In this document: one piece after another, positions 3,504 through 57,633 of the stretch
Numbering within the stretch: the stretch's first letter is position 1
How the letters are laid out: each line of letters begins with the position of its first letter
NCBI GenBank assembly: GCA_046153685.1
Contig: JBJXGH010000096.1
Span: 491-64,490, forward strand
Direction: 5' to 3'
DNA from: Alphaproteobacteria bacterium
Lineage (GTDB): Bacteria; Pseudomonadota; Alphaproteobacteria; CADEGL01
Length of the DNA: 64,000 nt
Program-made: the position numbers and the translations under genes
Notes under the pieces: model-generated
The model's database searches: none
What the model saw: only the letters and a program-made list of their open reading frames with translations
What the model was told of the DNA's origin: nothing

Positions 3504-4226
3504 ATGGCCAGGCGCGTCACCCTTTTGACCGGCGTATCGAAAGGCATTGGCCGCGCCGTGGCCGAACGCCTCGCGCGCGAGGGGCATTATGTCATCGGCC
3601 TCGCGCGCACCAAGCCCGAATGGGATTTTCGAGGCGATTTTCATGCGATCGATCTGACCGATCTTGAAACCACACGCACGCTCGTGGACAACCTCGCCGC
3701 GCGGCACGCCATCGACGGTCTCGTGCACAATGCCGGCTACGCGAAGATCGAACGGCTTGAGACCATGTCCATCGCCGAACTCGACGACATGATGACCCTG
3801 CATGTGCGCGCCGCGGCGGTGATGGTGCAGGCGCTTGCGCCGGCCATGAAAAAACGCGGCTTCGGCCGCATCGTCCTGGTCGGCAGCCGCGCGGCTCTGG
3901 GCAAGATCGGTCGCGGTGCCTATGCCGCTACGAAATCGGCGATGCTTGGTTTCATGCGCAGCTGGGCGCTCGAACTTGGACCGAGCGGCATAACGGTCAA
4001 TTGCGTGGCCCCGGGCCCGACCGCGACCGAGCTGTTCCGCCGCGGCAATCCACCCGACGCGCCCGCGACCAAGGCGATCATCGCCTCGATTCCGGTGGGA
4101 CGCATGGGCAAGCCCGAGGAGATGGCCGGAGCGGTCGCCTATTTTCTCGGCGAGGATGCTTCCTTCACCACGGGTCAGGCGCTCTATGTCTGTGGCGGGC
4201 TGACCGTGGGCCTATATCCGGGCTGA
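3504..4226 (+). CDS. SDR family oxidoreductase
   Basis: LLTGVSKGIGRAVAERL, HNAG, YAATK motifs; 4 nt after the cyclase stop. Confidence 0.8.
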   Translation: MARRVTLLTGVSKGIGRAVAERLAREGHYVIGLARTKPEWDFRGDFHAIDLTDLETTRTLVDNLAARHAIDGLVHNAGYAKIERLETMSIAELDDMMTLHVRAAAVMVQALAPAMKKRGFGRIVLVGSRAALGKIGRGAYAATKSAMLGFMRSWALELGPSGITVNCVAPGPTATELFRRGNPPDAPATKAIIASIPVGRMGKPEEMAGAVAYFLGEDASFTTGQALYVCGGLTVGLYPG

Positions 4227-13418: not shown

Positions 13419-14765
13419 ATGGCACGGGACGATCTGCACAGACTAACGGCGAGCGCCGCCGCCGCCCTCATCCGCCGCAAAAAACTCGGTGTCGTCGAAT
13501 ACACCGAGGCGCTCATCGCCCGCATCGAGGCGCGCGAACCCGTTGTGCGCGCCTGGCAGTATTTCGCGGCCGAGCAGGCCCGCGCGAACGCGCGTTGGGT
13601 CGAACGCAATGTCACCGGAGGTGCGCTGCGGGGCGTGCCCATCGGGATCAAGGACATCATCGAAACCAAGGACATGCCGACGACCTACGGCGCCTTGCCG
13701 CTGTATGGCGAACACCGACCGAAATGGGACGCCTCGTGCGTGGCGCTTGCCCGGCAAGCCGGCGCCGTCGTCATGGGCAAGACCGTGACCTCGGAATTCG
13801 CCGGATATTATACCGGACCCAGCGTCAATCCCCACGACCCGACGCGCAGCACCGCGTTTTCATCGATGGGCTCGGCGGCCGCGGTGAGCGATTTCCACGT
13901 TCCGCTCGCCTTCGGCAGCCAAACGGGTGGGTCGATCATCCGGCCGGCAGCGTTCTGCGGGCCGATCGGCTACATGCCGAGTTACGGAATATTCAACACC
14001 ACCGGCGTGCACAATCTCGCGCCCGCGCTCGACCATCTCGGCCATTTCGCGCGCGCGATCGACGATGTCGCCCTGCTCGGCCAGGTGCTGACGGGCGATG
14101 GGCGCTTCGGCATGGGCGCGCCCGGGCGCACACCGCGCATTGGCTTTTTCACCGGCTGGGAAAAGCGCCAGGCCCAGCCGGTCATTTGGGAAACGCTTGA
14201 GGCCGCGCGCGCCTCGCTCGGCAAGGCCGCGCGCGTCGTCGAGGTGAAATTGCCAAAGGCGCTGTTCGCGATGAACGACCATTGCCTGACATTGATCCGC
14301 TACGAGGCGGCACGCACCTTCGCCCATGAATATTTCCAGGAAAAACCCGGCGGGCTCAGCAACACCATGCGCGATCTCGTGCGCGACGGACTCGGCGTGT
14401 CGCGCGCGCACTATTTCGAGGCCCTCGAGGCCGCGCAGTCCGGGCGCGTGCTCCTTGCCGGTTTGTTCAAGGAGCACGATATCGACGTGTTCATTACCCC
14501 TAGCGCCGAGTGCCTGCCGCAATTGCTTGAGGAGGCGGTCAGCCGCTCGGTGTTCAACCGTCTATGGACGATCCTGCACGTGCCGACCATCGCCTTCACT
14601 ACGGGCACCGTGACGCTGAAGCCCACGCTCAAGCAGCCTCAGACCGTGACATTGCCCGTGGGCATTCAGATCGTCGGGCGCTATCTCCGCGATCACGAGG
14701 CTTTGCAGGTGTCGCGCTGGCTGGAAACCCGCCTGGCGCGCGTCGTTGAACCCATGAATTGGTAG
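13419..14765 (+). CDS. amidase (amidase-signature family)
   Basis: 448 aa; GIKD and GGS.IRPAA motifs of the AS family. Confidence 0.8.
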   Translation: MARDDLHRLTASAAAALIRRKKLGVVEYTEALIARIEAREPVVRAWQYFAAEQARANARWVERNVTGGALRGVPIGIKDIIETKDMPTTYGALPLYGEHRPKWDASCVALARQAGAVVMGKTVTSEFAGYYTGPSVNPHDPTRSTAFSSMGSAAAVSDFHVPLAFGSQTGGSIIRPAAFCGPIGYMPSYGIFNTTGVHNLAPALDHLGHFARAIDDVALLGQVLTGDGRFGMGAPGRTPRIGFFTGWEKRQAQPVIWETLEAARASLGKAARVVEVKLPKALFAMNDHCLTLIRYEAARTFAHEYFQEKPGGLSNTMRDLVRDGLGVSRAHYFEALEAAQSGRVLLAGLFKEHDIDVFITPSAECLPQLLEEAVSRSVFNRLWTILHVPTIAFTTGTVTLKPTLKQPQTVTLPVGIQIVGRYLRDHEALQVSRWLETRLARVVEPMNW

Positions 14766-14812
14766 ATTTTATAGCATCTTAGGCGACTTGACAGAGGCGC
14801 TTCTGTGCATTA

Positions 14813-14842
14813 GAACAAACACAGAACGAACAAAACGCGAAC
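14813..14842 (+). promoter_or_regulatory. two tandem alphaproteobacterial LexA (SOS) boxes, GAAC-N7-GAAC x2
   Basis: GAACAAACACAGAAC immediately followed by GAACAAAACGCGAAC, about 20 nt upstream of imuA. Confidence 0.7.
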
Positions 14843-14863
14843 GTTATGATGTGAGCACAAGAC

Positions 14864-15751
14864 ATGCGCGCGGACATGGACCATTGGGACATGGACCATC
14901 GGAGCCATCGGAACGAACATGCCGTGAGCGGAACGCATGGCTTCGCCGCGCAGCCAGCGAAACGGCGCCCGGACCGGGCCGTCCTTCGCAGCCTGCGCCG
15001 CCAAATCGATGCACTCGGGGGCTGCGGCGCCCGGCACGGCACGGTCGCGCTGGGCATCGTCGAAATCGACCGCCATCTGCCTTGGGGCGGACTGCCGCGC
15101 GGCTGCTTGCACGAAATTCTCGGCGACAAGGCTGACGGCGCGCCGCTAGCCTTTACCGCCCATCTGCTTGCCCTGCTCTCGGCGCGCCATGCGGGACCGG
15201 TGCTGTGGCTTTCGGCGCGCGGCGGGCTTTATCCGCCCGGTTTGCACACCTTCGGACCCGAAGGTGCCGGCGCCTGGACCGCGCGCCTGCTCGCGGTGCG
15301 CGCGCGCACTCCCGGCCGGCCCATCTCCGAACAGAGGGGCGCCGGGCACCGGAATCTCATTTGGGCGCTTGAGGAAACCTTGCGCACGCGCGGCCCCGCA
15401 GCGGTCGCCGCGGAAGTGGGGCAACTCGACCTCGTCGCCGCGCGCAGGCTGCAGCTTGCGGCCGAGGAAGGCGGCGCCTTGGCCCTGGTGCTGCGCGAGG
15501 CGGCGAAGGACGACGCGGCGCAAGCGCGCGCCACCGCCGTCACGCGCTGGCATGTGCAAAGCGCGCCGAGCGCTTCGTGCGCCTGGGGCGGGCCGGGGGC
15601 CGTGCGCTGGCGGATCGAGCTTTTGCGTTGCCGTGGCGGAGCGCCGCGCGGCTGGATGGTGGAGAGAGACGATGAGACGGGTGCTTTCGCTGTGGTTGCC
15701 GCGCTTCGCGACGGATCGCGCCACGCGCACGCGGCCGCTCTGGCGGGCTAG
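14864..15751 (+). CDS. imuA: ImuA, SOS-mutagenesis cassette protein (RecA-fold)
   Basis: LRRQIDALGG..GIVEID..LPWGGLPRGCLHEI pattern; position first in an imuA-imuB-dnaE2 array; LexA boxes upstream. The true start may be one of several ATGs at 14864-14891. Confidence 0.7.
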   Translation: MRADMDHWDMDHRSHRNEHAVSGTHGFAAQPAKRRPDRAVLRSLRRQIDALGGCGARHGTVALGIVEIDRHLPWGGLPRGCLHEILGDKADGAPLAFTAHLLALLSARHAGPVLWLSARGGLYPPGLHTFGPEGAGAWTARLLAVRARTPGRPISEQRGAGHRNLIWALEETLRTRGPAAVAAEVGQLDLVAARRLQLAAEEGGALALVLREAAKDDAAQARATAVTRWHVQSAPSASCAWGGPGAVRWRIELLRCRGGAPRGWMVERDDETGAFAVVAALRDGSRHAHAAALAG

Positions 15752-17321
15752 GCCGTTCGTCATTACGCGGGCAGAGGGCGGGCGGTTGCTCGTCGCCGCG
15801 GCGAACGCGCGCGCCGAAAGTTCGGGGATGACGCCGGGCATGACGCTCGCCGACGCCCAGGCGCTCGTGCCGGGTCTGCTGACCTTGCCGACCGAGCCGG
15901 TCGAGGACGCGCGCGCGCTCTTACTCCTGGCCGAATGGTGCGGTCGCTATACCCCCTGGGTCGCCTCCGACGGCGCGGACGGCCTGTTCCTCGAGATCGC
16001 GGGCTGCGGCCATTTGTTCGGCGGCGAAGACGCGCTCGCGCGCGATCTGCTTGAACGCATGGCACGCTTCGGCCTCGCCGCGCGCGTGGCGGTGGCGGAC
16101 ACGCCCGGCGCCGCCTGGGCGCTTGCGCGGTTCGGCGCGGCCAATCCCACCCTGCTCGGCGATGGCTCGTACGAAGGGACCATGCTCGCCGCCGCTCTCG
16201 GCCCCCTGCCCACCTCGGCTCTCCGGCTATCTTCGGCCCATGTCGAGGAATTGCGCCGGCTCGGCCTGCGGCGCATCGCCGATATCGCTGCCCTGCCACG
16301 CGCGGCCCTGACGACGCGCTTCGGCCCGGGCGTTGCGCGCCGCCTCGACCAGGCCTTCGGGCGCGATTTCGAACCCCTCGCCCCCCATCAACCCGCCGCC
16401 CCGGATCGAGTGCGCAGCGCCTTCGCCGAGCCCGTGCGTGCGCGCGAGGCCATCGAAGCCGTTCTCGCTGACCTGCTCGGCCGGTTGTGCGCGCGCCTGG
16501 CTGAACGGGGGCACGGGGCACGGCGGCTCGATTTCGCGCTCTATCGCACCGACGGCACGGTCGCCACCGCCAGCGTTGGCACCAGCCGACCCTCGACCGA
16601 TACCCGCCATCTCGCGCGCCTCTTCGCCGAAAAGCTCGATCATCTCGATCCCGGATTCGGCGCCGACGTGATCGCGCTCGCAGCACCGCTCACCGAGGCT
16701 TTCGCCGCCGCTCAGACCACGCATCTTGCCGTGTATGGCGGGGTTTCATCCGCTACGCGTGGTGGGCTCGACGTACTCGCTCCCCTCGTCGACCGCCTGG
16801 ACAATCGTCTAGGCGCGGGCGCCGTGGCGCGCTTGGCACCGGTGGATAGCCACCTGCCCGAACGCGCCGTCGCGCGCCGCCCGCCATTCGCCGCCGCGGC
16901 GCGCCGCCCCGCGCCCTGGCCGGCGCGGGGACCGCGGCCCGTGCGCCTATTCGACCCCCCCGAACAAGTCGATGCCGTGGCCCCCGTGCCGGACGATCCG
17001 CCCGTCATGTTCCGCTGGCGCAATGTGCTGCACCGGATCGCGCGCGCCGACGGACCCGAACGCATCGCGCCCGAATGGTGGCGCACGCCCGCCGCGCGCA
17101 ACACCTCCAAGACCGCACCCGGCTTGTTTCCCGATTCGTCCTCCGATTCTCCGGACGATGCGCGCGCCCCCACGCGCGCGGCTGCTGCGGACGAAGGCGC
17201 CGCGACCCGCGATTACTACCGGGTCGAGGACACCGAGGGCCGGCGCTTCTGGCTCTACCGGCATGGGTTGTACCGTCCGGGCGCCGCTCCCGCCTGGTTC
17301 CTGCACGGCCTATTCGGCTGA
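15672..17321 (+). CDS. imuB: ImuB, Y-family polymerase-like mutasome subunit
   Basis: Start set at MRRVLSLWLPRFATDR (typical ImuB N-terminus) inside ORF 15168..17321; overlaps the imuA 3' end by 80 nt. Confidence 0.7.
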   Translation: MRRVLSLWLPRFATDRATRTRPLWRARPFVITRAEGGRLLVAAANARAESSGMTPGMTLADAQALVPGLLTLPTEPVEDARALLLLAEWCGRYTPWVASDGADGLFLEIAGCGHLFGGEDALARDLLERMARFGLAARVAVADTPGAAWALARFGAANPTLLGDGSYEGTMLAAALGPLPTSALRLSSAHVEELRRLGLRRIADIAALPRAALTTRFGPGVARRLDQAFGRDFEPLAPHQPAAPDRVRSAFAEPVRAREAIEAVLADLLGRLCARLAERGHGARRLDFALYRTDGTVATASVGTSRPSTDTRHLARLFAEKLDHLDPGFGADVIALAAPLTEAFAAAQTTHLAVYGGVSSATRGGLDVLAPLVDRLDNRLGAGAVARLAPVDSHLPERAVARRPPFAAAARRPAPWPARGPRPVRLFDPPEQVDAVAPVPDDPPVMFRWRNVLHRIARADGPERIAPEWWRTPAARNTSKTAPGLFPDSSSDSPDDARAPTRAAAADEGAATRDYYRVEDTEGRRFWLYRHGLYRPGAAPAWFLHGLFG

Positions 17322-17330
17322 TGCGCGCGC

Positions 17331-20300
17331 ATGGCGCGCTATGCCGAGTTGCAGGTCTCGACCAATTTTTCCTTCCTCCGTGGCGCGTCCCACCCCGAAG
17401 AATTGGTTGAGGCTGCCAAGGCCCTGGGCCACGACGCCATCGCGGTCACCGACCGCAACACCCTGGCCGGTGCGGTGCGCATGCACGGCGCGGCCAAGGC
17501 AGCCGGGTTACGCCTGGTTCCGGGCGTCCGACTCGACCTCATAGATAGCACTAGTATTCTATGTTATCCCATTGATAGAAAATCATATGGGCGACTTTGT
17601 CGTTTGCTGACTCTCGGCCAGAGGCGCGCCGAAAAGGGTGCCTGTGCCCTCCATCTCAGGGACGCGCTCGATCACGCCGAAGGCCAAATCATCGCCATCC
17701 TGCCCCCCGATTCGCCCGGTGATTGGTTGCCCGGTGATCGGTCGCTCGCCGAGCGCACGCTCGCCGAATGGAAATCGGCCGTGGGCGATCGCTGCTATCT
17801 TGTGGGTCACCGCCTCTACCAGGGCGACGACAACCGGCGCCTGGCCACCCTCGCCGACTTGGCGGCGCGGCACGGCGTGCCCCTGCTCGCAACCAATGAC
17901 GTTCACGCCCACATACCCGGCCGGCGCGCGCTCCAAGACGCGCTCGCCTGCATCCGTGCGGGCACGACGATCGAGCGCGCTGGGTCCCTGCTTTTCGCCC
18001 ATGAAGAGCGCCACCTGAAGGCACCAGGCGAGATGGCGCGACTGTTCCGCCACCATCCGGATGCGATCGCGCGCACGGCGGAGATTGGCGCGCGCACCCG
18101 GTTTTCGTTCGACGATCTGCGCTACGAGTATCCGACCGAGACCCTGGCTGGCGAAACCCCGCAACAGACGCTCGAGCGCGAAACCCTAGCCGGCGCGCAC
18201 GCGCGCTATGGCGGCGAGATACCGCCCAAGGTGCAAGCCCAGATCGCATACGAGCTTCGCCTCATTGGCACGCTCGGCTACGCGCCCTATTTCCTCACCG
18301 TGCACGACATCGTGCGCTTCGCGCGCGAGCGCAAGATTTTGTGCCAAGGCCGAGGTTCGGCGGCCAATTCCGCAATCTGCTATTGCCTGGGTATCACTGC
18401 GGTCGATCCCAGCCGGCTGGATTTGCTGTTCGAGCGTTTCGTCTCCGCCGAGCGCAACGAGCCACCCGATATCGACGTCGATTTCGAGCACGAGCGGCGC
18501 GAGGAAGTGATCCAGTACATCTATGCCAAATACGGCCGCGAGCGCGCCGGCATCGCCGCCACCGTCATCCGCTACCGGGCGCGCAGCGCCATCCGCGACG
18601 TGGGCAAGGCCCTGGGCCTGTCGGAGGACATGACCGGCGCACTCGCAGGCACGGTCTGGGGCTGGAGCGGCGACGCCATCCGCCCCGAATGGCTGCGCGA
18701 AACCGGCTTCGATCCGACCGATCCGCGCCTTGGCACGGCCATCGACTTGGCGCGCGCCCTGATCGGTTTTCCCCGCCACCTGTCCCAGCACGTCGGCGGC
18801 TTCGTCATCACCCGCGGCCCGCTCGAGGAAGTCGTGCCCATAGGCAACGCCGCCATGGCCGATCGCACCTTCATCGAATGGGACAAGGACGATCTCGACA
18901 TGCTTGGAATTCTTAAGATCGATATCCTTGCACTCGGCATGCTGACGTGCATCCGCAAGGCCTTCGCATCGATCGAGGCCGAGACCGGAGAGCGCCTCAG
19001 CCTCGCCACCCTGCCGGCCGAGGATCCGGCGGTTTACGACATGCTGTGCCGGGCGGATTCGATCGGCGTCTTCCAGGTCGAAAGCCGGGCGCAAATGAGT
19101 TTTCTGCCGCGCATGAAACCGCGCAATTTCTACGATTTGGTGATCCAGGTCGCGATCGTGCGCCCGGGCCCCATTCAAGGCGACATGGTTCATCCCTATC
19201 TCCGGCGCCGCAACGGCGAGGAGCTCGTCGAGCTGCCCTCGGAGGAGCTGCGCCAAGTCTTGGGCAAAACTTTGGGCGTGCCTCTGTTCCAGGAACAAGC
19301 CATGCGCATCGCCATCGTCGCCGCCGGTTTCACTCCTCCGGAGGCCGATCGGTTGCGCCGTGCCATGGCGAGTTTCCGCAAGACGGGGCAGATTCACATC
19401 TTCCGCGCCAAGATGATCGAAGGCATGACCGCGCGCGGCTACGACCGTGCGTTCGCCGAGCGCTGTTTTCGCCAAATCGAGGGCTTCGGCGAATACGGCT
19501 TTCCCGAATCCCACGCCGCGAGCTTCGCTCTGCTGGTTTACGTTTCGGCTTGGCTCAAATGCCGTCATCCAGCGGCCTTCGCCTGCGCCTTGCTCAACAG
19601 TCAGCCGATGGGCTTCTACGCCCCCGCCCAGATCGTGCGCGACGCTCTCGAACACGGCGTCGAGGTCCTACCCATCGATGCCAACGCATCCGCTTGGGAC
19701 TGCACGCTCGAAACCTCCCCCCAGTGCGCTTCCCCCGCCCTGCGCCTGGGCTTGCGGCAGATCAAGGGTTTCGCCGAGGCCGATGCCCGCCGCCTTCTGG
19801 CCGCGCGCGGCGCGGGCTACCGCGATCCGCGCGCGCTATGGCTGCGCGCGCGCCTGACGCTTGCAGTGCTTGAAAATCTAGCACGCGCCGACAGCTACCG
19901 TTCGATGGGCCTCGATCGCCGCCAGGCGCTATGGGCCATCAAGGCGCTTGGGGCCTCGCCCTTGCCGCTCTTGTCCAGGATCGAGGATGAGGCGCACGAG
20001 CCGACGACCCAGCTTGTCGCCCCGACCAAACTGCCCGCCATGGCCCTGCTGCCTGCAATGACCATGGGTGAACAGATCATGGCCGATTACGCCAGCCTCC
20101 GCCTCAGTCTACGCGCCCATCCGCTGACGCTTTTGCGCGCGCGCCTCGACCGCGACGGCATCGTGCCGTGCGCGCATCTCGCCGCCATCGAGTCCGGTCG
20201 GCGAACGCGCGTCGCCGGCATCGTGCTCGTGCGCCAGCGCCCCGGCAGCGCCAATGGCGTGATCTTCGCCACCCTCGAGGACGAAACCGGCATCGCCAAT

Positions 20301-20609
20301 GTCATCGTTTGGCCCGACACCTTCGAGCGGTATCGCGCCGTCGTCCTGGGCGCGCGCCTCTTGTCGGTCGCCGGACGCGTGCAGCGCGAGGGCATCGTGA
20401 CGCACGTGATCGCCGAGACGCTCGCCGATTTAACCGGCCATCTCGCCGAGCTTGCCGATGCCGGTCTTGCCGGTGAAAGCGAGTCCGCAAACAGCGCGTT
20501 CTCCCGCGCGGGCCAGGTGCGTCAGACCCAAGGGCAAGCCGCTCGGCCGACCACGTCACCGTCCGGCGCGCTCGACGCTGCTGATTTCCCCTCACGGGAC
20601 TTCCACTGA
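17331..20609 (+). CDS. dnaE2: error-prone DNA polymerase DnaE2 (ImuC)
   Basis: 1092 aa; MARYAELQVSTNFSFLRGASHPEELV PHP-domain N-terminus; pol III alpha core. Confidence 0.9.
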   Translation: MARYAELQVSTNFSFLRGASHPEELVEAAKALGHDAIAVTDRNTLAGAVRMHGAAKAAGLRLVPGVRLDLIDSTSILCYPIDRKSYGRLCRLLTLGQRRAEKGACALHLRDALDHAEGQIIAILPPDSPGDWLPGDRSLAERTLAEWKSAVGDRCYLVGHRLYQGDDNRRLATLADLAARHGVPLLATNDVHAHIPGRRALQDALACIRAGTTIERAGSLLFAHEERHLKAPGEMARLFRHHPDAIARTAEIGARTRFSFDDLRYEYPTETLAGETPQQTLERETLAGAHARYGGEIPPKVQAQIAYELRLIGTLGYAPYFLTVHDIVRFARERKILCQGRGSAANSAICYCLGITAVDPSRLDLLFERFVSAERNEPPDIDVDFEHERREEVIQYIYAKYGRERAGIAATVIRYRARSAIRDVGKALGLSEDMTGALAGTVWGWSGDAIRPEWLRETGFDPTDPRLGTAIDLARALIGFPRHLSQHVGGFVITRGPLEEVVPIGNAAMADRTFIEWDKDDLDMLGILKIDILALGMLTCIRKAFASIEAETGERLSLATLPAEDPAVYDMLCRADSIGVFQVESRAQMSFLPRMKPRNFYDLVIQVAIVRPGPIQGDMVHPYLRRRNGEELVELPSEELRQVLGKTLGVPLFQEQAMRIAIVAAGFTPPEADRLRRAMASFRKTGQIHIFRAKMIEGMTARGYDRAFAERCFRQIEGFGEYGFPESHAASFALLVYVSAWLKCRHPAAFACALLNSQPMGFYAPAQIVRDALEHGVEVLPIDANASAWDCTLETSPQCASPALRLGLRQIKGFAEADARRLLAARGAGYRDPRALWLRARLTLAVLENLARADSYRSMGLDRRQALWAIKALGASPLPLLSRIEDEAHEPTTQLVAPTKLPAMALLPAMTMGEQIMADYASLRLSLRAHPLTLLRARLDRDGIVPCAHLAAIESGRRTRVAGIVLVRQRPGSANGVIFATLEDETGIANVIVWPDTFERYRAVVLGARLLSVAGRVQREGIVTHVIAETLADLTGHLAELADAGLAGESESANSAFSRAGQVRQTQGQAARPTTSPSGALDAADFPSRDFH

Positions 20610-20656
20610 ATCGGGCGACGCCCCGAATCGGAAGATGTCCCGAATCGGACGATCCC
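20606..20656 (+). repeat. tandem ~17-nt direct repeats (CCCGAATCGGA[A/C]GAT..), 2.5 copies
   Basis: ctgaatcgggcgacg / ccccgaatcggaagatgt / cccgaatcggacgatcc spanning the dnaE2 stop; followed by an AT-rich stretch. Confidence 0.6.
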
Positions 20657-20730
20657 CGGTCAACTCATTTGCCTCCCAAAAGAAATATCCTTAGGTTTTA
20701 TAGGTACTCAATCTTAGAAAGGATGAAGCG

Positions 20731-21159
20731 ATGACGGTTGCCGCCACCCTGCATACGCTGGCGGTCGCGGTGCTTATAGGCGGCATATGCTTTATGTATT
20801 TTGTCATGCGCCCAGCAGCCGCGAGCGTCGATCCCGGCGTGCGCCTGCCGCTTTGGCGCCGGGCATTCCAATATTTCCTACCATGGCTCATCACCGCGGC
20901 GCTCGTGCTGCCAGCGAGCGGCTACTACATGATCGCGACGGAAACCGCTTCGCCCAATGGCAATATCCATCTCAAGCATTTGGCAAGCTGGCTCGCGAAT
21001 ATCCTCCTGATTTACGCCTATCTCGTGCCGTACCGCCGGATGGAAACCGCCATGGGCCAGGGCGAGCGCCCACGCGCGGCGCGCCAACTTGCCCGAATCC
21101 ACTTCATCATGCTCTGCGCCTTGATCGCCCTAGTGATCGCGGCCATCCTTAGCGCCTAA
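20731..21159 (+). CDS. hypothetical integral membrane protein (4 predicted TM helices)
   Basis: 142 aa, hydrophobic segments; AT-rich promoter-like region and aaaggatgaagcgATG RBS upstream. Confidence 0.5.
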   Translation: MTVAATLHTLAVAVLIGGICFMYFVMRPAAASVDPGVRLPLWRRAFQYFLPWLITAALVLPASGYYMIATETASPNGNIHLKHLASWLANILLIYAYLVPYRRMETAMGQGERPRAARQLARIHFIMLCALIALVIAAILSA

Positions 21160-21249
21160 CCGGCTCATCGCTTGATCGCGACGCCGCCCGGCGCTTGCGC
21201 TGCGCGGATGCAACTCGACTAAGTTAGCCATCGAATTCAGGAACCAGCC

Positions 21250-22305
21250 ATGCGTCCCACCATCCGCGTTGCCGAAACCGATCTCCTGCATTTCGCCCAA
21301 GCACTTCTTGCGGCAGCGGGGGCATCGGAGGAAAACGCGCGCGACGCAGCGGAAATCTTCGTCGAGGCGGATCTGAAGGGCGTCGGTCCCCAAGGCGTCG
21401 ATTATCTCTATTACATCGTGGACAGCCTCAAGCGCGGCCTCATAGACGGTCGGGCACGGCCGCGTCTTGCGCGCGAGACCGCCTCGACCGCGCTCATCGA
21501 CGGCCAGCGCGGCTTCGGCCAGCCGGCAGCGCTCATGGCGGTCGAGATCGCAACCGCAAAGGCGCGCGCCAGCGGCACGGCCACGGTCGCCATCGGCAAT
21601 TCAACCGATATTTTCATGATCGGTGCCTATGCCGAGCGCTTGGCGGCGCAGGGCCTCATCGGCTTGGTCATGACGTCCGGCCCCCCGCTCGTCCATCCGC
21701 ACGGCGGCACCGAGCGCGTGATGTCGACCAATCCCCTCGCCTTCGCCTTTCCGCGTGCGGGCAGCGATCCTTTCGTTCACGACATGGCGACCAGCGCCTA
21801 CTCGTCCTCGCGCGTGCGCCAGGCGGCCTATCACGGCGAGCAACTGGCACCCGGCGCAGGCGTGGGACCGGATGGGGTTGCCACGACCGACGCCGCCACC
21901 ATCCGCAAAGGCGCCATAGCACCCATGGCCGAACATAGGGGCTTCGGCCTCGGCTTGGCGGTGGCACTGCTTTGCGGCCCGCTTTCCGGTTCGGGTGTCG
22001 GACTCGATCTCGGCGGCTGGCAACACGACGGCGAAACTCAGTCGCAGGGCCATTTCGTCCACGCCTGGGATCCCGCCGCATTCGGCGACCCGGCGGCGTT
22101 CGTCGCGGGCTGCGAACGCTATTTTGCGCAAATCAAGGCATCGAGGAAGGCACCGGGCACGACCGAGATCCGCATACCGGGCGAGCGCGCCGCCGCGGCG
22201 CGCCGCCTACAACGTCAGAACGGCATCGAGGTCCTGGCCGCGACTTGGGCCAAACTTGGCGGCTATGCGCGCGAGCTTGGCCTTGCCATGCCGAGGACCA
22301 CCTGA
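21250..22305 (+). CDS. Ldh family oxidoreductase (malate/L-lactate dehydrogenase family 2)
   Basis: 351 aa; Ldh_2 family pattern. Confidence 0.75.
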   Translation: MRPTIRVAETDLLHFAQALLAAAGASEENARDAAEIFVEADLKGVGPQGVDYLYYIVDSLKRGLIDGRARPRLARETASTALIDGQRGFGQPAALMAVEIATAKARASGTATVAIGNSTDIFMIGAYAERLAAQGLIGLVMTSGPPLVHPHGGTERVMSTNPLAFAFPRAGSDPFVHDMATSAYSSSRVRQAAYHGEQLAPGAGVGPDGVATTDAATIRKGAIAPMAEHRGFGLGLAVALLCGPLSGSGVGLDLGGWQHDGETQSQGHFVHAWDPAAFGDPAAFVAGCERYFAQIKASRKAPGTTEIRIPGERAAAARRLQRQNGIEVLAATWAKLGGYARELGLAMPRTT

Positions 22306-37351: not shown

Positions 37352-37428
<77 letters not shown>

Positions 37429-37896: not shown

Positions 37897-37973
<77 letters not shown>

Positions 37974-57218: not shown

Positions 57219-57633
57219 CGCGACAACTCCCCGCTTAGTCATGCTCGCCACTTTTGGTTCAACCGATGGGGATAATACGCATGGCGATGTGGCAGGTCCG
57301 TCGCCGAATCGGTAAAAAGGAAATTTATCCGGCTGGGACGACCGAAGCGATTTGGATTCGGCCGACGCCGCCCAGGGTAATTGACCATGGCCCGGATTGC
57401 GATTTAAGGACCTCGATTCGAGGGTAATTCAGAGAAATAAGACAAACTTACAGGTACAATATTATGGTTCAACCTTGGAATTTTAATTCGCGCCGACCAA
57501 TTCGGCCAAGTTTCTATTTTAGAATTAGGTGCTCCTTAGGGCCTTCTTTAATTTGACGAAATAAATTGACATTTTAGCCTTTTCCTAGGTACTATGGTTG
57601 TGACCGGCACCCAGAGATTATACAAACGAGACC
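57219..57633. repeat. anomalous AT-rich intergenic region with multiple short direct repeats
   Basis: About 40-45% GC versus ~65% flanking. TGGTTCAACC appears twice, GGGTAATT twice, GATTCG several times, AGGTAC-(N)-TATGGTT twice, and TTGAC -35-like hexamers several times. Confidence 0.6.

Follow-up and report, generated by a model that had tools for sequence, protein, structure and literature searches.

The 64-kb stretch of alphaproteobacterial DNA analysed here (the window) carries a dnaE2 gene in which some 70 nt are written in A/T-rich, rare codons. The locus raises the questions of how such a patch came to stand inside a GC-rich coding sequence and whether it influences the output of an error-prone polymerase.

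The dnaE2 operon and its rare-codon island

The dnaE2 gene (17331..20609, forward strand) encodes an error-prone DNA polymerase of 1092 amino acids. The product scored 1423.5 bits against the NCBIfam model NF004225, 'error-prone DNA polymerase' (cutoff 939), while replicative DnaE models scored under their own cutoffs. It contains the Pfam domains PHP, DNA_pol3_alpha, finger, HHH_6 and OB, and is 100% identical to a protein recorded as 'MAG: error-prone DNA polymerase [Alphaproteobacteria bacterium]' (P0001). Upstream on the same strand lies an imuB-like homologue of the Y-family polymerases (15672..17321; Pfam IMS and IMS_C). Its ORF spans 15168-17321, and the probable start, 15672, is an ATG preceded by GGAGAG. 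An imuB-like gene was found upstream of dnaE2 in 80 related loci. The imuA-like gene (14864..15751, forward strand) gave its best NCBIfam match to NF033429, ImuA_translesion, at E = 3e-14, which is under the curated cutoff; homologous ORFs also occur upstream in two other loci discussed below, L026 and L062. Two tandem LexA-type boxes, GAAC-N7-GAAC, were identified by motif match upstream of imuA (14813-14827 and 14828-14842, forward strand). Neither GAAC-N7-GAAC nor GTTC-N7-GTTC occurs anywhere else in the 64 kb; we take the former motif to be the alphaproteobacterial SOS box. With the dnaE2 model match, the imuA-like and imuB-like genes upstream and the SOS box, the locus has the expected make-up of a DnaE2/ImuABC mutasome cassette, as judged from sequence. 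The known control of this cassette is mainly transcriptional, via LexA.

The AT-rich island (17541..17612, forward strand) corresponds to dnaE2 codons 71-94, which encode IDSTSILCYPIDRKSYGRLCRLLT and read ata gat agc act agt att cta tgt tat ccc att gat aga aaa tca tat ggg cga ctt tgt cgt ttg ctg act. The most extreme part, 17541-17600, has a GC content of 0.333, compared with a window mean of 0.643 (sd 0.069, 60-mers). It is the joint second-lowest-GC 60-mer of the 64 kb; the two others at this extreme both lie between genes. In 20-codon windows, the GC3 of the patch was 0.15-0.20 (mean 0.786, sd 0.10, for 14,416 coding windows), with only 3 of 20 codons ending in G/C, where the coding average is 79%. 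Within their codon families, eight of the codons are used at a frequency below 0.08 (ATA, ACT twice, AGT, CTA, AGA, TCA and CGA) and a ninth, CGT, stands at 0.079; GAT and TAT, also present, are not rare in the source genome. AGA is decodable, given the presence of a tRNA-Arg(UCU) gene. Of the 5730 72-mers of the operon, the patch is also the richest in AU (0.639) and, as read from the sequence, it has 9 TpA steps within 50 nt.

The significance of this codon usage was evaluated by random reverse translation, in which the proteins were held fixed and the codons were redrawn from the window's own usage. Not one of 3000 simulations produced, in any gene, a 20-codon window with three or fewer G/C-ending codons; four or fewer were reached in 0.07%. 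The pointwise probability of the patch codons given the peptide was approximately 1.3e-9. Significance relative to random reverse translation is a property of the rare-codon clusters of Chaney et al. 2017, and the patch shares it. These values bear out the earlier note, which had described an AT-rich patch of rare A/T-ending codons in dnaE2 and had allowed that the local usage might prove not to be deviant; the deviance is statistically extreme. When aligned with E. coli Pol III alpha, the patch falls at residues ~74-105, inside the PHP domain and between small structural motifs.

Origin and recurrence of the island

The nearest sampled relative, L081, is 77% identical in amino acid sequence and has GC-rich, normal codons over the patch. 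The dnaE2 alignment thus did away with the concern that relatives might carry the same AT codons. Of 21 differences from L081 within the patch, 18 had A/T in the window and G/C in L081, none had the reverse, and 3 were of other kinds. Outside the patch, the same classes stood at 14:12:22, 82:54:70 and 229:138:201 (Fisher p = 2.7e-4). Differences without direction occupied 3 of 72 positions in the patch and 16-20% in the flanks, and overall nucleotide identity to L081 was 0.71 in the patch and 0.69 in the flanks. At 17 of the 18 one-way sites, most of 39 outgroups carry G/C, which identifies the A/T state of the window as derived. As read from these alignments, at least 17-18 one-way G/C to A/T substitutions occurred within 72 nt since the split from the nearest sampled relative.

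The converted sites were distributed unevenly over the codon: 7 of 16 available G/C sites at first positions, 0 of 12 at second positions and 11 of 16 at third positions (second versus third, p = 2.5e-4). The untouched second positions indicate that selection on the protein filtered the changes, which did not arise as one random burst. Indeed, a single mutational burst, such as that of a deaminase or an oxidative shower, is ruled out by this filter together with the mixture of 10 transitions and 8 transversions in the alignment. The peptide keeps lineage-specific residues common only to the nearest relative (P0009), and shows a few conservative amino acid changes toward A/T-coded residues (I, K, S, F and N). 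What is being acted on, these shifts indicate, is base composition, not the rarity of the codons in itself. Taken together, the one-way derived changes, the untouched second positions and the lineage-specific residues argue that the patch formed in place, and we consider it very probable that it is real and native, being neither foreign DNA nor an artefact.

A second island was found in L026, a locus of a distant Caulobacterales genome, where GC3 was 0.08-0.17 over codons 77-92 and ~0.8 elsewhere. Over the same codons, its differences were skewed one way toward A/T, 21:3 relative to L085 and 20:3 relative to L086, with balanced flanks. The part of the window that overlaps this independent island (17562..17606, forward strand) was a reciprocal best blastn-short match to it at 31 of 36 nt, sharing TTATCCCATTGATnGAAAA and, further on, TATGGnCGACTTTGyCGT. 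The two genes use identical codons at 10 of 16 positions against 6.7 expected, p = 0.014 under a naive convergence null. L026 does not share the first half of the patch. A search for close relatives of L026 found none, the best being 66-70% identical.

Across 52 high-GC dnaE2 genes (50,943 windows), there were only three strong dips, two of them at or beside the patch site. The third, in L062, lies elsewhere, in a dnaE2 gene with a broken frame, which weakens the case for the patch site being special. The gene-wide GC3 minimum fell at the patch site in 5 of the 52 genes, as compared with 1.8 expected: strongly in L026 and weakly in L072, L021, L083 and L059. The whole of the N-terminal 180 codons is enriched in such minima, and the family mean of GC3 at the patch site is normal, with a mean z of -0.2 to -0.5. 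Most high-GC homologues have GC3 at this site equal to or above that of their own flanks, and the island is lacking in ~50 other high-GC dnaE2 genes, including that of the nearest relative. The known instances number two or three, all from metagenome-assembled genomes, with no isolate among the loci that have a strong island. When 240 homologues were screened for A/T-coded residues over this segment, the window came joint first and no new case emerged; a profile search with the two patch peptides recovered nothing but short dnaE2 fragments of consensus type. A metagenome scan whose pattern ignored codon choice turned up L082 and L083, in which the YPIDRK peptide is not tied to AT codons: L082 encodes it with GC-rich codons, and the L083 gene is of moderate GC throughout.

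Whatever its function, the island is a clean example of a composition anomaly of the sort routinely read as foreign DNA that formed in place by one-way substitution. As such it is useful for molecular evolution, and the A/T enrichment occurred twice at the same codons.

Local signals and candidate functions

The small motifs listed in the earlier note, namely an inverted repeat, two copies of GATAG, and SpeI and NdeI sites, are all present, but the palindromes and the repeat occur at chance frequency. The imperfect repeat (17540..17563) pairs CATAGA at 17540-45 with TCTATG at 17558-63 and spans the SpeI site, ACTAGT, at 17550-17555; the NdeI site, CATATG, lies at 17584-17589. The probability of at least one 6-bp inverted repeat was 0.21-0.48 under two nulls, and the repeat has no counterpart in L026. 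That of at least two palindromic hexamers was 0.20-0.37, so the restriction sites are unremarkable. Template-switch correction of a quasi-palindrome could account for the 6-bp arms alone, leaving the rest of the 72 nt unexplained. A by-eye comparison with XerCD dif, DnaA box, IHF and CtrA motifs gave partial matches only. A conserved small ORF was also rejected: in the window, the out-of-frame ATG at 17587 opens just 7 codons, and the ORF that it opens in L026 is not homologous. ORFs on the reverse strand are the usual artefacts of high-GC DNA.

The suggestion of an RNA structure embedded in the coding sequence found no support. The predicted fold of the patch was not significantly stable (z = -1.49; 16 of 200 shuffles were at least as good), and Rfam gave no match in 14000-21500 at E <=1 apart from a spurious lncRNA match elsewhere. 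A scan of both strands of the patch for sigma-70-type promoters (-35 and -10 elements at 16-18 nt spacing), to which the scan was confined, found none. Predictions for naked RNA gave a mean probability of being unpaired of 0.386 for single bases (operon, 0.39) and 0.039 for 6-mers (operon, 0.053); the most accessible 25-nt stretch of the patch ranked 77 of 5877. The RN|WUU motif occurred at 27.8 per kb in the patch against 8.1 per kb, a density that represents just 2 motifs. With respect to RNase E sites of the puf type, the patch is AU-rich but is not predicted to be accessible as a single strand.

Of the four readings offered in the earlier note, a putative translational pause or attenuation device that would throttle the polymerase is the most plausible functional one. 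We tentatively favor the view that the patch may be a locally selected, nucleotide-level brake on DnaE2 output. An unrelated high-GC lineage shows the same feature at the same codons, and a force that acts across the genome cannot be suspended for just 70 nt; from this we infer local selection on the nucleotides. Such a patch would cap the production of DnaE2 below that of ImuA and ImuB. It might do so through slow decoding of ATA, AGA, CTA, AGT, ACT and TCA, through a candidate AU-rich entry site for RNase E in the 5' portion of the final cistron, of the kind described for the Rhodobacter puf operon, or through both. If the patch is a brake, then its lack in ~50 other genes means that most lineages do without one. 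The average predicted accessibility, the amino acid shifts, the decodable AGA, the presence of the non-rare codons GAT and TAT and the small number of instances also speak against this reading. If DnaE2 output is limited by an island in the coding sequence, the supply of mutations would have a new point of control. The broader proposal, that distant alphaproteobacterial lineages convergently built an AU-rich, rare-codon cis element in 5' dnaE2 that caps the catalytic subunit of the mutasome post-transcriptionally, is rather unlikely on the present comparisons; if true, the element would back up LexA repression as a second safeguard on induced mutagenesis.

It is also possible, if on the whole doubtful, that the island is a non-adaptive by-product: a functionless AT-rich scar left by a local, lineage-specific shift in mutation or repair bias, or by a run of fixations of slightly deleterious GC to AT changes. 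Purifying selection on the protein would explain the codon-position pattern, and the direction of change fits the usual mutation bias of bacteria, which runs from GC to AT. The absence of the island from the nearest relative and ~50 other genes, the location of the L062 island at another site in a broken frame, and the lack of a regulatory signal in the promoter, Rfam, fold and accessibility scans are likewise consistent with a scar. Moreover, dnaE2 is a low-expression, DNA-damage-induced gene, so selection on its codons should be weak. However, the flanks keep a GC3 near 0.8, and no mechanism is known to us by which an altered bias of mutation or fixation would be restricted to ~70 nt. Recurrence at the same codons in two independent lineages, conversion of third-position G/C sites to near saturation, and the failure of all 3000 codon-usage simulations to produce such an event also argue against it.

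An improbable alternative is that the rare codons impose a pause that aids co-translational folding of the PHP domain and does not limit output. The location of the patch, inside this domain and between small structural motifs, is typical of such clusters (PMC5438181), and among 53 genes the gene-wide GC3 minimum coincides with its position strongly in two and more weakly in four. Against this, the rarity is not conserved across the family, as the small mean z indicates, and the amino acids changed too, which a pure pausing device would not need.

It is quite improbable that the patch is a DNA-level site for an AT-preferring protein, such as the alphaproteobacterial silencer MucR or another nucleoid protein, acting as a putative transcription roadblock or nucleation point for silencing inside the operon. 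A segment of 33% GC in a 64% GC genome is of the type that MucR-like silencers prefer (PMC9410896), and the TpA steps, the TTATCCCATTGATnGAAAA common to the window and L026 and the codon identity slightly above the naive null are compatible with such a site. Nevertheless, documented MucR targets, which are AT-rich islands and promoter regions, are far larger than 70 bp. The patch has no dyad or repeat beyond chance, its first half is not in L026, and shared ancestral codons together with transitions could account for the excess codon identity.

Gene conversion from a low-GC donor, another proposal of the earlier note, is very unlikely and has been largely refuted, whether the short patch is supposed to have been converted or imported from a low-GC homologue of dnaE2, a paralogue or a mobile element. 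The local composition does resemble that of low-GC dnaE2 genes (Bacteroidota, SAR116), and imuABC cassettes are often plasmid-borne and multi-copy. Nevertheless, no candidate donor emerged. In a codon-aligned comparison with 81 dnaE2 loci, the best nucleotide identity was 0.60, and blastn-short against a wider DNA set found no donor of the patch. Searches by blastn returned nothing from plasmids and one chance match from phages (E = 0.7). Viral contigs scanned for exact patterns yielded a single 19-nt match, which lies in an AT-rich, non-dnaE2 contig and is estimated to be about chance, and none for the first half of the patch. A tblastn search of plasmids matched 531 dnaE2 records, none with the A/T-shifted peptide. 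The patch is as near to L081 as its flanks are and, the 18:0 one-way changes aside, more conserved; its peptide carries native, lineage-specific residues; and the flanks have no stretch of identity to a low-GC donor for recombination.

An artefact of assembly, sequencing or engineering, though all three island-bearing loci (the window, L026 and L062) are metagenome-assembled and none with a strong island is an isolate, is extremely unlikely: errors or chimeras would not respect codon position, frame and lineage-specific residues, a chimeric path would require, at either side, long k-mers in common with a low-GC genome, and three assemblies with unrelated accession series and differing contig-naming styles show the pattern. 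The engineered segment suggested in the earlier note is not supported, given the chance-level occurrence of the SpeI and NdeI sites and the same phenomenon in the unrelated L026 genome.

Comparison with known systems

In high-GC Streptomyces, TTA codons and the bldA tRNA gate expression, and stress-dependent, codon-biased translation acts likewise. The dnaE2 island similarly places very rare A/T-ending codons, in a high-GC genome, in a gene needed only under particular conditions. It differs in that such gating relies on one specific codon and its tRNA, whereas the island clusters many different rare codons, with no regulated tRNA known.

Targets of MucR and H-NS-like proteins (AT-rich islands and promoter regions; PMC9410896) are, like the patch in this alphaproteobacterium, far more AT-rich than the genome average. 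Those targets are horizontally acquired islands or promoters of at least hundreds of bp, whereas the patch is a native 70-bp segment inside a coding sequence.

Position-specific rare-codon clusters typically lie inside domains between small structural motifs (Chaney et al. 2017, PLoS Comput Biol, PMC5438181). The island resembles them in being dense, well inside the coding sequence and a structural domain, significant, and recurrent at the aligned position in a distant homologue. It departs from them in that the rarity is seen in only 2 strong and ~4 weak cases among 53 genes, and in that the patch alters amino acids, so that the trait under pressure looks like base composition.

In high-GC Rhodobacter, RNase E begins rate-limiting decay at AU-rich sequences inside pufQ and the 5' pufL coding region (PMC6238624; Fritsch 1995 and Heck 2000, as cited therein). 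Unlike the puf sites as described there, the dnaE2 patch is known from its sequence, and its predicted single-strandedness is average. The setting is otherwise similar to that account of puf: the genome is that of a high-GC alphaproteobacterium, the operon is polycistronic, and the AU-rich island stands in the 5' portion of a distal cistron. By analogy with what is described for puf, such an island could set the stability of a specific mRNA segment and, hence, the ratio of the products.

Composition of the dnaE2 patch

The window derives from a metagenome-assembled alphaproteobacterial contig of 64% GC. Its dnaE2 gene (17331-20609) encodes a 1092-residue DnaE2 that scores 1423 bits on NF004225 (cutoff 939) and contains the domains PHP, Pol III alpha, finger, HHH, and OB; this product matches P0001, 'MAG: error-prone DNA polymerase [Alphaproteobacteria bacterium]', at 100% identity. 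The gene is the last of a cassette, preceded by an imuA-like gene (14864-15751) and an imuB-like gene (ORF 15168-17321). Directly upstream of imuA, at 14813-14842, are two tandem GAAC-N7-GAAC boxes, the sole two matches in 64 kb, which we take to be of the alphaproteobacterial LexA type; this region is also the most accessible part of the predicted operon leader.

The codon reading of 17541-17612 (dnaE2 codons 71-94) in the earlier note matched the sequence exactly. The GC content of the 60-mer at 17541-17600 was 33.3%, versus an average of 64.3% (sd 6.9%) across the window. Equally low or lower 60-mers occurred in two stretches and nowhere else, both apparently intergenic: 57427-57486 (GC 0.283) and 20668-20727 (0.333), the latter just 3' of the dnaE2 stop codon. 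The share of codons ending in G or C, GC3, was 0.15-0.20 in 20-codon windows of the patch as compared to a mean of 0.786 (sd 0.10; 14,416 coding windows), the most deviant stretch well within any gene. As a null, we held all window proteins fixed and redrew their codons at random according to codon usage within the window; in 3000 such simulations, no 20-codon window had three or fewer G/C-ending codons. The pointwise probability of the patch codons given the peptide was ~1.3e-9, and far fewer than one such event is expected even genome-wide. The patch thus exceeds chance by a wide margin, and the codon deviance described in the earlier note stands.

Eight patch codons had a within-family frequency below 0.08 (ATA, ACT twice, AGT, CTA, AGA, TCA, and CGA), and CGT, at 0.079, was a ninth rare codon. 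The very rare AGA is decoded by the window's tRNA-Arg(UCU), which is encoded with tRNA-Pro(UGG) on the minus strand at 37352-37428 and 37897-37973. The SpeI and NdeI sites, 6-bp inverted repeat, and two GATAG copies that had drawn attention are indeed present, but are unremarkable in so AT-rich a stretch (P = 0.20-0.48 under two nulls). A milder GC dip in dnaE2, at 18870-18929 (GC 0.417, on FIEWDKDDLDMLGILKIDIL), was rejected as a rare-codon island: 12 of its 20 codons end in G/C and the dip arises mostly from amino-acid composition.

Formation in place

The protein closest to the window's DnaE2 was P0009 (77% identity, partial), all others being at most 69% identical; the lineage is poorly sampled. 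We compared the gene with the DNA of P0009, L081, and with 80 other dnaE2 loci. Aligned over the patch codons, this nearest relative lacked the AT codons and used ordinary GC-rich ones throughout. The 72-nt patch differed from L081 at 21 nucleotides, of which 18 were A/T in the window and G/C in L081, none were the reverse, and three were GC-neutral. Outside the patch, the corresponding counts were 14:12:22, 82:54:70, and 229:138:201 (Fisher p = 2.7e-4 for the one-way skew). At 17 of the 18 one-way sites, the majority of 39 high-GC outgroups carried G/C, indicating that the A/T states were derived in the window's lineage.

Conversions affected 11 of 16 available G/C sites at third codon positions, seven of 16 at first, and none of 12 at second (p = 2.5e-4), a pattern that indicates filtering by selection on the protein. 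This filter is incompatible with sequencing errors, with random chimerism, and with one mutational burst not subject to selection. The amino-acid changes that did occur were toward A/T-coded residues: G to S, P to T, L to I, T to I, and A/E to K. Non-directional differences from L081 amounted to 3 of 72 sites in the patch versus 16-20% in the flanks; thus, with the one-way changes set aside, the patch is closer to L081 than its flanks are. The peptide also contains residues exclusive to the window and P0009 (LID.TS and.SYGRLCRLLT.GQRRAEKGAC). Together, direction, polarity, codon position, and native background show that the ancestor of the patch was GC-rich and resembled L081, and that A/T enrichment took place in situ.

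Gene conversion from a low-GC donor and engineering, both proposed in the earlier note, were rejected. The highest nucleotide identity of the patch to low-GC dnaE2 genes (Bacteroidota, SAR116, and others) was 0.60, as compared to 0.71 for L081, and no donor was found by blastn-short over all DNA searched or among plasmids, phages, and viral contigs. Moreover, YPIDRK is not tied to AT codons: another dnaE2 locus, L082, writes YPIDRKAYGRLC with GC-rich codons. Separately, the N-termini of Bacteroidota DnaE2 (L002, L006-L010, L012, and others) were 50-57% identical to the window protein, a level on a par with that of many alphaproteobacterial homologues, which is consistent with inter-phylum transfer of the cassette.

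Recurrence in other dnaE2 genes

A second, independent island occurs at the same codons in L026, from a Caulobacterales metagenome-assembled genome with the same imuA-imuB-dnaE2 context, a gene GC3 of ~0.8, and an N-terminal amino-acid identity to the window of only 52%. Its GC3 was 0.08-0.17 across codons 77-92. Over codons 71-95, differences favoured A/T by 21:3 and 20:3 versus its nearest relatives, L085 and L086 (both GC3 0.81), respectively, with balanced flanks (16:23 and 131:137; 18:28 and 128:136). Here too, the amino acids gained are A/T-coded (P to F, T to I, A to K, and D to N), so the force in both genes appears to act on base composition and not merely on synonymous choice. The two patches were mutual best nucleotide matches (31 of 36 nt, blastn-short), and their codon identity, 10 of 16, exceeded the 6.7 expected under a naive convergence null (p = 0.014). 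This excess is ambiguous because common GC-rich ancestral codons with single transitions (CGG to CGA, CTC to CTT, CGC to CGT) could give the same identity.

Dips to GC3 ≤0.31 numbered three in 52 high-GC dnaE2 genes (50,943 sixteen-codon windows): L026 at codon 77, L072 at codon 90 (mild), and L062 at codon 386. With neighbouring genes counted in (~80,000 high-GC codons), the only true strong islands were those of the window, L026, and L062. The L062 island (4126-4200) lies on the ultra-conserved DFEHERREEVIQ motif of an alphaproteobacterial dnaE2 and is likewise enriched one-way, GC to AT (13-16 to 2-3). About 30 codons 3' of it the reading frame is broken, and the ORF ends at codon 433, so this gene is a pseudogene or else misassembled. 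Localised one-way AT enrichment is therefore recurrent in dnaE2, twice at the patch site and once elsewhere. The gene-wide GC3 minimum began in codons 60-95 in five of the 52 genes versus 1.8 expected; however, such minima are over-represented throughout the first 180 codons, and at the patch site the family has a normal mean GC3. The evidence for a special position is suggestive, not strong.

In-frame insertions of ~7-50 residues occur in the loop just before the 'SLLxYP' strand (~window codons 70-76) in many dnaE2 genes (L018 3196-3441, L048 3187-3360, L059 1865-2086; P0035, P0045, P0057, P0063, P0093, P0107), and several of these peptides resemble translated repeat elements, e.g. SPSPLVGEGGSRQRRETDEG...LLPQGEKGG. 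The loop appears to be a permissive insertion hotspot. ORFs of 62-97 residues encoding N-terminal DnaE2 fragments with consensus peptides (P0241-P0244, contigs of 7-799 kb), some with repeat-like tails (…PSPCKGG…), suggest disrupted dnaE2 copies in other genomes. The 1123-residue homologue P0004 contains an internal duplication of ~250 residues (the TIWGLSNSALPEEYVRQAGLDP... block twice), which probably reflects misassembly or tandem duplication.

Possible function and known systems

We are confident that the patch is real, native, lineage-derived, one-way GC-to-AT, protein-filtered, and replicated at the same codons in a second lineage. Genome-wide forces that hold GC3 at ~0.8 cannot be suspended for a mere 70 nt, and two lineages were affected at the same codons; the nucleotides of the patch are therefore probably under local selection. 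The reading we prefer, although tentatively, is that the patch limits synthesis of DnaE2 relative to ImuA and ImuB. Slow decoding at a run of the rarest codons would lower DnaE2 synthesis; an AU-rich entry site for RNase E within the 5' portion of dnaE2, the last cistron, would be an alternative or additional route. In AU content, the patch ranked first of 5730 72-mers of the operon mRNA. Its predicted unpaired probability equalled the operon average (0.386 versus 0.39; 6-mers, 0.039 versus 0.053), and its best 25-nt stretch ranked 77th of 5877 for predicted accessibility. An embedded RNA structure, another suggestion of the earlier note, was not borne out: the fold was no better than that of shuffles (z = -1.49) and an Rfam search matched no family. 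Scanning both strands of the patch revealed no sigma-70-like promoter.

The main rival to limited DnaE2 synthesis, a non-adaptive scar, is less likely but deserves weight: it fits the absence of the island from the nearest relative and ~50 other genes, although no mechanism is known at a scale of ~70 nt. The patch aligns with E. coli Pol III alpha residues ~74-105, within the PHP domain; a co-translational folding pause there is unlikely. Slightly less likely again is that the patch DNA binds an AT-preferring protein, MucR for instance (PMC9410896). Import from an unsampled donor is very improbable, and an artefact hardly credible.

The strengths of the case are its statistical extremity, the clean demonstration of in-place formation, and replication in a second lineage; the cases are few, two at the site and one elsewhere, all in metagenome-assembled genomes lacking close relatives. 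Clusters of rare codons at specific positions have been described as a class (PMC5438181). For the RNase E route, the puf operon of high-GC Rhodobacter provides a direct precedent, an AU-rich site within a coding region: rate-limiting RNase E cleavage starts there at AU-rich sequences inside pufQ and 5' pufL, resulting in segment-specific mRNA stability (PMC6238624). Rare-codon clusters and AU-rich decay sites within cistrons are thus already known; what is new is the in-place, convergent instance in dnaE2.
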